Shown piece after piece: positions 15,156 through 17,184 of a DNA stretch of 51,868 nucleotides. Position 1 is the stretch's first letter, and every line of letters begins with the position of its first letter. Under the pieces are notes generated by a model. The model was not told the DNA's origin and searched no databases. It saw only the letters and a list, made by a program, of their open reading frames with translations. The DNA is from Pseudomonadota bacterium. Its GTDB lineage: Bacteria > Bdellovibrionota > FAC87 > UBA2466. The stretch lies in the NCBI GenBank assembly GCA_043767805.1, contig JAYUGC010000167.1, positions 1 to 51,868 of the forward strand, written 5' to 3'. The translations under genes and the position numbers were made by a program.

Positions 15156-15821
15156 TTACTCGAAATCGATATAGACCACTGTGACATTGTCGGAGTAGTC
15201 CGCCTTGGCGGCTTCCGTCGTCATGGCCTCGAGGAGTGTTTCGGGTAGGGTGCCGTGCTGCTGGATGAGCTCGATGATGCGGTTCTCGGAAAGTTGTTTG
15301 TAGAGGCCGTCGCTGCAGAGGATGATCTTTTCCCCCGCAATGACCGGAATAGTCTCTTCCTGGATAGTAATAGGGGCTACATCCGGCGAAATACCTAAGT
15401 AGGAAGAAAGTACGGGCGCCTGGATGCTCTCGTCGAAAAGCTCATGGTCTTCGGTGAGCTGTCGCAGGTGATTTTCCGCATAGAGATAGCAGCGCGAGTC
15501 CCCGACGTGACAAAGCTCGACGAAACCCTCGTGCACCCGCACCGACGTGAGGGTCGTTCCCATCAACGCCTCGCCGATGGTGGTCATGGCTTCGTTTAAA
15601 ACCGCTTCCTGCCCTCGAAGGACGGCCTTTTTCAACTGTCCCGGCCCCTCGGCCAGAGTCTTTAAGGAAGTGACTGCGATTTGGCTCGCCACCTCTCCCT
15701 TCATCCCTCCGCCGACACCGTCCGCGACGGCAAAAACCGAACGCTCGGGATAGATCAGGAAGGAATCCTGATTCATCTCTCTGCCGCCGATGACGCTTCT
15801 GCCGTAAACCTTAAATTTCAT
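15156..15821 (-). CDS. PP2C-family Ser/Thr protein phosphatase
   Basis: NQD, VADGVGG, MGTT, HVGDSRCY, LCSDGL, DNVT. Confidence 0.93.
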   Translation of the reverse strand: MKFKVYGRSVIGGREMNQDSFLIYPERSVFAVADGVGGGMKGEVASQIAVTSLKTLAEGPGQLKKAVLRGQEAVLNEAMTTIGEALMGTTLTSVRVHEGFVELCHVGDSRCYLYAENHLRQLTEDHELFDESIQAPVLSSYLGISPDVAPITIQEETIPVIAGEKIILCSDGLYKQLSENRIIELIQQHGTLPETLLEAMTTEAAKADYSDNVTVVYIDFE

Positions 15822-15829
15822 TGCGAGAG

Positions 15830-16093
15830 TTATTCTAGTTCAATTTCGAGTCGCTGAAAGCAACGAATTTGGCAGGACCGGCGCGACCACCACTGATCGC
15901 CCTCTTTTATTTTTACGCGGCAGCTTCCACAAACCCCGAGACCTTGGCAGTTGAGCGTCTTGAAAGTCCCGCGATAAGGGGATACCCCGCTCTCTAAAAG
16001 CAGCTCGCGAAGACTTTGCCCTAGCTTGGCGCGAAGCGAACGAACCTCGCCCCCAACCTTCACTAGAACCTCAATTTGCTGGTTTTCCGACAC
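15830..16093 (-). CDS. Small [2Fe-2S] ferredoxin
   Basis: NCQGLGVCGSCRV...RSCQ; GTG start. Confidence 0.85.
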   Translation of the reverse strand: MSENQQIEVLVKVGGEVRSLRAKLGQSLRELLLESGVSPYRGTFKTLNCQGLGVCGSCRVKIKEGDQWWSRRSCQIRCFQRLEIELE

Positions 16094-16185
16094 TTCGGTA
16101 ACTCACGTACCACGCCCCGGCCCCACTCTCCACAATTAAGGATAAACACTTAATATTAATAATAAATCATCAATTGTGTGGGGGG

Positions 16186-16200
16186 TGTATACCAACTGTG
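16186..16200 (+). promoter_or_regulatory. Putative transcription-factor site TGTATACCAACTGTG abutting a -35 box
   Basis: Identical to 8568-8582; ends 2 bp before TTGCCC. Confidence 0.5.
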
Positions 16201-16202
16201 TA

Positions 16203-16231
16203 TTGCCCATCACAACACGTCGCGTTAGACT
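16203..16231 (+). promoter_or_regulatory. Sigma70-type promoter
   Basis: TTGCCC-N17-TAGACT with AT-rich upstream region. Confidence 0.6.
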
Positions 16232-16237
16232 AAACTT

Positions 16238-16465
16238 AGATTCGCTGGTCCGGCGAAGCTAAAGCCAAAAACTAAAAAGTGGAAAGATGACTTATAGGGA
16301 AGGCGAAAGCTTTCTTAAAACTCATAGGACCAGTCAAAGAGCTGCTACGCACGGGGGCGATGGAAAATTGTTACGGACTAACCCCCGAAACCGGAATCCT
16401 TAGTTGGGAATACCCCTCTCCCAGCTTGTTAAATTTCCGATTTTCCATCGCCCCTTCTCTTTTTC
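16238..16465 (+). ncRNA. Candidate structured non-coding RNA or regulatory leader of unknown family
   Basis: Promoter upstream; stems 16245-51/16327-33, GAAA-tetraloop hairpin ~16297-16316, 17-bp stem 16354-70/16438-54, inner hairpin 16402-09/16419-26, pyrimidine tail. Confidence 0.5.
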
Positions 16466-16503
16466 CTTCCGGATCTTTCTCTCTCGGGTAAATTCCCCCG
16501 GTC

Positions 16504-17184
16504 ATGAATCAACCCCTCGAAATCTGGCTTTCTCTCGACCTCTCCGCGCCGGTGGGCTCCTACGCCCTCCACGAGCGCCGTGAGGACACCCTGCGGCTCC
16601 TTTCCGAGGTGGTGACGGACGGCGGTCCCAATCACACGGAGACTGCGGTGGAGCGGATCACGGAGCTTCTGAAAGAGGCCGGCTTATCTCTCGGGCGCGT
16701 CGATCGCTTTCTGACTCCGCTCGGCCCCGGCTCGTTCACCGGACTGCGCTTGGCGATTTCCACGGTGAAGGCCTTCGCCTTCGCGCTGCAAAAGCCCATC
16801 ACGACTCTCGGCGCTTCCGAAGCGCGTTGGCTCGCGCATGGCTCGAAGACGACGGGCGCGGCCCTCACCCATTCGACGTCCGAAAAATTCGTGGTGTCTC
16901 GCTTCGACGCCCAAAGGCATCCCGGATTTGAAACGGTGGAACGCTTCGACACCATTCCCGCCGAAGTGCCGCTGGTGTTACTCGGAGACGGCAGAATTCC
17001 GCTCGAGAAATTACCCGAAGCCTGGCGCAAGAAAGTGGAAACGTTTCCGCTCCGCGCGCGCCATCTAGCCGAATCGGCGAACCGCGCTTCGACTCGCCGG
17101 GATTACACGAACGCGGGCGAGTGGATCGCCCTTTCGCCCGAGTACCTGGGCACTTCGATCAAGCCTATTTCCGGCGGCGCGTGA
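16504..17184 (+). CDS. tsaB: tRNA threonylcarbamoyladenosine biosynthesis protein TsaB
   Basis: HTE, GPGSFTGLR motif, C-terminal LSPEY. Confidence 0.88.
   Translation: MNQPLEIWLSLDLSAPVGSYALHERREDTLRLLSEVVTDGGPNHTETAVERITELLKEAGLSLGRVDRFLTPLGPGSFTGLRLAISTVKAFAFALQKPITTLGASEARWLAHGSKTTGAALTHSTSEKFVVSRFDAQRHPGFETVERFDTIPAEVPLVLLGDGRIPLEKLPEAWRKKVETFPLRARHLAESANRASTRRDYTNAGEWIALSPEYLGTSIKPISGGA

Follow-up and report, generated by a model that had tools for sequence, protein, structure and literature searches.

A candidate small RNA family with a covarying rod and two exposed C-runs upstream of tsaB in one class of Bdellovibrionota

Contig JAYUGC010000167.1 of the Pseudomonadota bacterium assembly GCA_043767805.1 (GTDB lineage Bacteria; Bdellovibrionota; FAC87; UBA2466) was analysed over its 51,868 nucleotides, and this whole stretch is referred to below as the window. 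A 410-bp intergenic gap in the window, flanked by a divergent ferredoxin-like open reading frame (ORF), named fdx here, and by a tsaB-like gene, carries an RNA element whose conserved unit is a core of ~105 nt at positions 16353-16454. Comparison across the class shows that this core folds as a rod, the stems of which covary while two C-runs, one in a large bulge and the other in an apical loop, stay unchanged. An initial annotation, made from the letters of the window, had described a structured RNA of two domains with its own promoter and had suggested either a novel small RNA (sRNA) or an attenuating leader of tsaB. The data partly support the former, a new RNA family of a familiar kind whose conserved unit is domain 2. 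As for its mode of action, the analysis gives a probability of roughly 0.45 to an independent sRNA gene that would act in trans, independently of Hfq, through its two invariant exposed C-runs.

Fold, covariation and distribution of the conserved core

The promoter hexamers, both domains and the U tract of the initial annotation were all recovered at their places when the sequence was read directly. The transcribed part consists of the following features.

16245-16251 and 16327-16333, + strand: closing stem of domain 1, CTGGTCC with GGACCAG, as read from the sequence, with a GAAA-capped hairpin inside.
16238-16346, + strand: domain 1 and linker, a lineage-specific 5' extension that is not conserved; RNAfold agrees with the initial annotation.
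16353-16370, + strand: 5' strand of P1, the long closing helix of the conserved core (RNAfold, covariation).
16438-16454, + strand: 3' strand of P1 (RNAfold, covariation).
16375-16378, + strand: 5' strand of P1b, GGAC, which pairs with GTTA at 16428-16431 (three of four pairs in the window).
16379-16401, + strand: large bulge on the 5' side, holding the near-invariant C-run (16382-16386) and GAAAC (16387-16391).
16402-16426, + strand: P2 hairpin; its apical loop of 9 nt (16410-16418) includes CCCCTC at 16413-16418.
16455-16467, + strand: U-rich tail, based on T counts across members; with P1 it is the presumed intrinsic terminator and RNA 3' end.

P1 is a 17-bp stem in the window (16354-16370 with 16438-16454), which encloses the P2 strands AGTTGGGA (16402-16409) and TCCCAGCT (16419-16426) and is followed directly on its 3' side by TTCTCTTTTT at 16455-16464. 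RNAfold reproduced both domains on the + strand of 16235-16470, with a minimum free energy of -77.7 kcal/mol versus -59.3 +/- 4.6 kcal/mol for shuffled sequences (z -4.04; 0 of 200 shuffles equalled it). The - strand reached only z -1.25 and was equalled by 20 of 200 shuffles, and the G-U pairs suit the + strand only, which bears out the initial reading of a structured RNA on the + strand.

Compensatory change across orthologous loci, the pattern expected of an RNA-level structure, is strong. Among 36 distinct members aligned to a covariance model of the family, standard pairs occupy 98.5% of 612 pair cells, and changes on both sides are seen in 16 of 17 pairs. None of 500 shuffles reached any of five covariation measures, and pairing fell to 36-56% when the 3' partners were slid by 1-3 columns as a control. 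An independent MAFFT/RNAalifold run recovered the same two helices and showed compensation in 11 of 19 pairs. The ten modelled pairs of P1 are 97.8-100% paired, nine of them with changes on both sides; all seven modelled pairs of P2 changed on both sides, and 99.2% of their cells are paired. G-U or U-G occurs in 70 of the 612 cells and non-standard combinations in only nine. These 70 cells would be mismatches on the opposite strand, so the RNA is read in the direction of tsaB. P1b forms all four pairs in 28 of 36 members, versus 7.2 expected from shuffles, and its compensatory variants include TGAC/GTTA and AGAC/GTCT.

Folds of the individual members share one architecture. P1, of 10-17 pairs, continues through an interrupted extension into P1b (GGAC/GUCC); a bulge of ~22 nt follows on the 5' side, opposite 0-3 nt on the 3' side, and leads to P2, a helix of 7-10 pairs with a loop of 6-9 nt. 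GGAC is invariant or nearly so, and the same is true of the bulge sequence A-N-CCCCC-GAAAC and the P2 loop sequence CCCC(U/C)C. According to the predicted pairing probabilities, the C-run of the loop is exposed in every member (median unpaired probability 1.00; >0.7 in 36 of 36), and that of the bulge has a median mean unpaired probability of 0.66 with a minimum of 0.59. The C-runs are invariant although the adjacent TsaB diverges to 28-43% identity between genera.

Two further pairings were considered and discarded. A CCG/CGG mini-hairpin within the bulge, predicted by RNAfold, is lost by eye in divergent members, and for a pseudoknot or alternative pairing between a 5' G-run and the internal C-run, with a topology like that of hepatitis delta virus, the length of the G-run tracks the 3' C-run and not the internal one (by eye). 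Extra lineage-specific hairpins were observed in the 5' strand between P1 and P1b at L007, L008, L016, L069 and L134, the one inserted at L016 having a UUCG loop.

The ~220-nt unit of two domains stands for the genus of the window and falls as a conserved family, which is domain 2 alone. Domain 1 found no BLAST match in 40 related genomes, including that of the sister species of the same genus, where the match covers only query positions 124-271. The predicted distance from the start to P1 spans ~2 to 132 nt across 36 loci, and the 5' extension is nearly absent in L012, L066, L067, L096 and L097. Where present, it is a closed stem-loop domain by eye, often with stable GAAA or UUCG tetraloops. 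We infer that domain 1 is a genus-specific 5' extension, which brings the window RNA to ~225 nt. As for a small coding gene, an ORF of at least 40 amino acids crosses the motif in at most 13 of 33 loci for any one frame, and a 43-amino-acid ORF of the window (16360-16491) was rejected as a gene, its ATG being absent by eye from other genera.

The distribution of the core is sharply bounded. BLAST of 16200-16470 against 40 related genomes gave 75-87% identity over query 175-230 (window 16374-16429) in many genera. When 185,579 species genomes were scanned for the pattern, 22 loci emerged, of which 20 are in metagenome-assembled genomes (MAGs) labelled Bdellovibrionota, Bdellovibrionales, Bdellovibrionaceae, Pseudobdellovibrionaceae, 'Deltaproteobacteria', Proteobacteria, Pseudomonadota or 'bacterium'; the remaining two, in Pseudomonas and Rhodobacteraceae, have no flanking stems by eye and were taken as chance. 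A first covariance model (R1, from 21 distinct cores) had exactly one match apiece in 24 genomes out of 151 sampled from the phylum. The matched genomes include 20 of 20 sampled from the family of the window and three of three from the sister family, and none of 127 sampled genomes from 23 other Bdellovibrionota families matched. Of the 38 genomes that make up the order, and equally the entire class, 36 are strongly matched by R1 or by a second model (R2, from the 36 members), among them all 28 of high quality; the two genomes with no match are 77% and 81% complete. Each matched genome holds one strong match, at E values between 4.8e-6 and 1.3e-24. When R2 was run with filters off around tsaB in 19 genomes of other families, nothing scored better than E 0.24. 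Seven of nine metagenome loci are family members, and viral contigs gave no match. A mobile or repeat element was rejected, as BLAST of the region against its own genome gave only itself above chance.

Novelty was examined by covariance search, and no known family matches. With Rfam 15 (4227 models), neither the whole window nor any of 20 homologous loci matched at gathering score, and a relaxed search of 16000-16600 at E up to 10 was equally negative. A divergent signal recognition particle (SRP) RNA, 6S RNA, transfer-messenger RNA (tmRNA) or RNase P RNA was rejected, since all four lie elsewhere in the genome of the window above cut-offs: SRP RNA on C90 (59.1 bits), 6S RNA on C125 (99.6), tmRNA on C3 (188.2) and RNase P RNA on C168 (179.2). 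The RNase P RNA match (C168:16904-17376) spans 473 nt versus a model of 367 positions, probably owing to an insertion.

The literature on sRNAs and transcription start sites of Bdellovibrio, and on structured RNAs and riboswitch candidates of Bdellovibrionota, yielded no description of the RNA. A previous study mapped eight attack-phase sRNAs (APsRNAs) of 98-655 nt in B. bacteriovorus HD100 by RNA-seq (PMC3627812). Together with merRNA of the same strain, these are the only sRNAs that we found reported for the phylum, to which the new RNA also belongs. The APsRNAs are reportedly without homologues outside B. bacteriovorus (PMC3627812). The new RNA was not found in the 23 other sampled families. 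The HD100 merRNA contains a cyclic di-GMP riboswitch (PMC3627812), which Rfam would have detected here.

Transcription signals and the neighbouring tsaB gene

The signals around the core and the downstream gene are as follows.

16203-16208 and 16226-16231, + strand: RNA promoter, -35 TTGCCC and -10 TAGACT separated by a 17-nt spacer; predicted start near 16238.
16184-16207, + strand: tandem motif TGTATAC-N4-TGTRTA, which abuts or overlaps the -35; regular-expression match in 31 of 36 loci; candidate regulator site.
16489-16494, + strand: -10-like TAAATT, presumed tsaB promoter, 9 nt before the ATG; the window has no clear TTG -35 for it.
16504-17184, + strand: tsaB-like gene (PF00814, E 2.5e-12), the downstream neighbour wherever the locus extends far enough.

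The promoter proposed by the initial annotation recurs throughout the family, as the sigma70-type pattern TTGNNN-N16-18-TANNNT stands ahead of the core at each of the 36 loci, with a -10 of mostly TATACT or TATAAT; the pick in four of the 36 may differ from the conserved promoter. At the other end, the G+C-rich P1 stem and the U tract after it have the form of an intrinsic terminator in 33 of 36 members, the count requiring five or more T in an 8-nt stretch among the 14 nt that follow P1; 26 of 36 members have six or more T in such a stretch. A second, canonical short-loop terminator hairpin was seen between the P1/U-tract and tsaB in L013 and L017 of genus g5. Judging from these signals, the element is probably a separate sRNA gene and not a leader of tsaB.

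The tandem motif TGTATAC-N4-TGTRTA may be the site of a dedicated regulator. A direct repeat resembling a Pho box is one conceivable identity. Read on the minus strand, the motif could instead provide -10-like TATACA boxes for the divergent fdx. A position weight matrix (PWM) of the motif, run over the 4.5-Mb genome of the window, scored 27.4 bits here and 17.2 bits at the next-best site; with only this site recovered, the motif was rejected as a regulon site.

The mRNA of tsaB appears to be leaderless or near-leaderless and to start from its own promoter. The pattern TTGNNN-N16-18-TANNNN ends 5-10 nt before the tsaB start in 18 of 35 loci, versus 0.6 expected. Its spacer is 17 nt in 16 of these 18, and the commonest gap is 6 nt, with which transcription would start on the A of the ATG. 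TA-initial hexamers before the tsaB start lie mostly at 6 nt (13 sites) or 9 nt (10 sites), counted over 35 loci of which one may contribute more than one site. Since G is depleted at -13 to -8, no Shine-Dalgarno (SD) sequence precedes tsaB. The -35 of tsaB lies in or right after the U tract of the RNA, and in genus g12, where only 26-27 nt separate P1 from the tsaB start, it lies inside the P1 3' strand. Such interleaving of a terminator with the promoter of a leaderless gene would hold the two genes together with no regulation needed, and would explain why an sRNA is fixed beside a gene that it need not regulate.

The attenuating tsaB leader of the initial annotation is disfavoured on these grounds, namely the promoter pattern of tsaB itself, the missing SD and a closing stem of 10-17 G+C-rich pairs, which is too stable for a switch helix. 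A leader role is also unlikely because the whole gene block is syntenic across the class. In the genome of the window, an SD core was observed at -18 to -4 in 31% of 1,399 crudely called starts (background 7-10%), and a TA-initial hexamer 5-10 nt before the ATG in 36% of the same starts, versus 22% at 25-30 nt. These figures hint that leaderless mRNAs are common in this genome.

Possible modes of action

According to the favoured mechanism, transcription would begin at the conserved sigma70-type promoter near 16238 and end at P1 and the U tract, at ~16455-16467, giving a ~225-nt product in the window, and tsaB, 26-77 nt further, would be read from its own promoter interleaved with that terminator. 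The rod would keep both C-runs single-stranded for pairing with G-rich, SD-like stretches of target mRNAs, and this pairing would lower the translation or stability of the targets with no need for Hfq or ProQ. Neither protein has a match in the genome of the window, rated 100% complete, so the RNA would act without them. Pairing in trans is favoured because of this lack, of the C-rich regions of RsaE/RoxS and of the invariance precedent of Yfr1.

Previous studies showed that the C-rich regions of RsaE/RoxS target SD sequences and that deletion of hfq has no major effect (PMC4409812). RsaE/RoxS is likewise ~100 nt long, has its own regulated promoter and a terminator, and is conserved well past the genus; its unpaired C-runs pair with G-rich SD sequences (PMC4409812). 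The new RNA exposes two invariant C-runs, in bulge and loop. Several unpaired C-rich regions and a predicted terminator end are thus common to both. However, RsaE/RoxS has three or four C-rich regions, whereas the new RNA has two, set in a single rod with paired ends, and with no Rfam match and a class of Bdellovibrionota in place of Firmicutes the two are analogues at most. Yfr1 is found across the cyanobacteria and contains an 11-mer that is invariant and unpaired; in 27 of 31 genomes its gene precedes trxA, of which it is not the leader (PMC2190773). It resembles the new RNA in being lineage-wide, with an ultraconserved unpaired C-rich motif between helices, a terminator hairpin and a fixed housekeeping neighbour (PMC2190773). 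It differs in its length of 54-69 nt, its two separate stem-loops and its motif ACUCCUCACAC (PMC2190773). The new RNA is instead a nested rod of ~105 nt with the motifs CCCCC-GAAAC and CCCCUC, and has neither the Yfr1 architecture nor ACUCCUCACAC.

Several observations weigh against pairing in trans by a separate sRNA. In 16,786 start-codon windows of the genome of the window, words antisense to bulge or loop do not outnumber their sense, reversed or complement counterparts (bulge 10-mer: antisense 21, sense 16, reversed 25, complement 34). Complementary words are not enriched genome-wide either. In 38 genomes, the 11-mer that would pair with the invariant bulge occurs ~115 times, of which ~32 are the RNA genes themselves, its reversed control is commoner (~237 times), and five of the 38 genomes have it only at the RNA gene itself. 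The two best target candidates from the start-codon-window scan were rejected for lack of conservation: an ORF on C127 is found in one of 38 genomes, and a site on C30, which by eye overlaps the last part of the preceding gene's coding region, is missing from G005. All these target tests are crude, and short or imperfect seeds would escape them. The paired ends and more than 10 invariant nucleotides over deep divergence suit a protein- or ligand-binding RNA equally well. The pair counts given above come from a model-fitted alignment, which biases them toward structure. A consensus scanner gave no promoter-like and no terminator-like site in 15800-16800; it requires 9 of 12 hexamer positions, of which the window matches 4+4, and accepts terminator loops of 3-8 nt only, while the stem here encloses ~67 nt or more. 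As the scanner calls neither element, the promoter and terminator assignments rest on comparative data. Finally, no transcript was found, as no RNA run is listed as holding 16100-16560; the eight runs listed as holding it are all DNA, from sediment and estuary metagenomes and one unlabelled.

A somewhat unlikely alternative is that the RNA binds a protein, as a decoy, a sponge or a ribonucleoprotein (RNP) scaffold with the logic of 6S, Y or CsrB RNAs, the bulge and loop docking one conserved partner. This partner might be Rho or a KH-domain binder of C-rich single strands, and the rod with paired ends would then confer stability. Like 6S and bacterial Y RNA, which are stable rod-shaped protein-binding RNAs, the new RNA is a single-copy gene product whose ends pair in a long interrupted helix around a large conserved internal loop, and the predicted start lies only 2-7 nt before P1 in several genera. 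The motifs of bulge and loop are invariant while neighbouring proteins fall to ~30-40% identity, essentially every genome of the class holds one strong match, and an mRNA target signal was not found in the start-codon windows of one genome or in the 38 genomes. The authors of the Yfr1 study raised the same alternative, leaving open whether their motif acts by base pairing or by binding a protein (PMC2190773). On the other hand, canonical 6S RNA lies elsewhere (99.6 bits), and unlike 6S the bulge is one-sided, with 0-3 nt on its 3' side. CsrA is present (one gene, C14:66587-66745), yet it is a poor fit because GGA varies between members: some genera have TGAC or TGGC at the first motif, and at the second there is AGA, GAA or no motif. 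A CsrA sponge of the CsrB/RsmY type was rejected, as the core has at most two GGA, one of them within the paired P1b, and other sequences take the place of both in some genera.

It is also conceivable, though unlikely, that the RNA is a class-specific component of a housekeeping RNP, a fifth stable RNA beside SRP RNA, 6S RNA, tmRNA and RNase P RNA. That its invariant C-rich bulge and loop dock a conserved cellular machine, such as Rho or a binder of C-rich strands associated with the ribosome or with RNA decay, is a similarly doubtful proposal. If an RNP component were confirmed, it would represent a new mode of global control in the lineage, for which the single genome examined yielded neither Hfq nor ProQ.

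Control of tsaB in cis is rather improbable. The promoter and the P1/U-tract terminator would here set or insulate the transcription of tsaB, or read-through would supply it; attenuation and interference with the overlapping tsaB promoter are variants of the same idea. The strict adjacency speaks for it, since P1 lies 26-77 nt from the tsaB start in 34 of 35 loci (692 nt in L073, by tblastn) and tsaB is downstream in five of seven metagenome members (one of the remaining two is truncated and one unclear), even after loss of fdx. The presumed tsaB -35 inside the P1 3' strand of genus g12, and the interleaving of U tract and -35, point the same way. However, synteny of the whole block across the class makes adjacency alone weak evidence, and tsaB has a promoter pattern of its own with no SD for a long leader to use. 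Yfr1 has the same kind of fixed neighbour and no control in cis (PMC2190773), and an insulating terminator needs no invariant bulge and loop.

A riboswitch-type ligand sensor, with bulge and loop as the pocket, C-runs that might read guanine-type ligands and P1 as the terminator, is very improbable, although invariant junction and loop residues amid covarying stems are an aptamer-like pattern and the aptamer of the hydroxymethylpyrimidine pyrophosphate (HMP-PP, thiS) riboswitch overlaps a terminator stem: the 10-17 mostly G-C pairs of P1 would form whether or not ligand is bound, an alternative pairing was not apparent by eye, the element is tied to one class and to one gene that seems to have its own promoter, the extension from the start to the 'aptamer' varies from 2 to 132 nt, no Rfam riboswitch matched, and the switching helix and expression platform for a downstream ORF that mark riboswitches in general were not found.

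Whichever partner the C-runs have, the element is a ready-made new RNA family, being single-copy, near-universal in the class and strongly covarying, with invariant exposed motifs. A family model would improve annotation and open post-transcriptional control in these bacteria to study. According to the record labels, the carrier lineage is represented by MAGs only, and beyond the eight attack-phase RNAs of B. bacteriovorus our literature search gave no regulatory RNAs described for Bdellovibrionota.

Flanking genes

The upstream neighbour of the RNA gene is the following.

15830-16093, - strand: ferredoxin-like ORF (fdx), divergent, with weak matches to Fer2 and DHODB_Fe-S_bind, under the Pfam cut-offs.

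The block Rieske/DUF2203-PP2C-fdx, RNA-tsaB and gldG is syntenic throughout the class. By tblastn, fdx was not seen upstream in 11 of 36 oriented loci, and PP2C and tsaB were still found in most of these 11. Pairing of the C-runs with the 5' untranslated region of fdx was discarded, as G-rich stretches are present there in some loci, inconsistently (by eye).

Finally, a second conserved element, of the AATATTGAAATTT or AATTGTGGAATTTT type, was noticed by eye in several genera on the 5' side of fdx, at ~16125-16140 on the - strand in the window. An element of the same type is also present by eye in the fdx upstream regions of L003-L005 and L009-L011.

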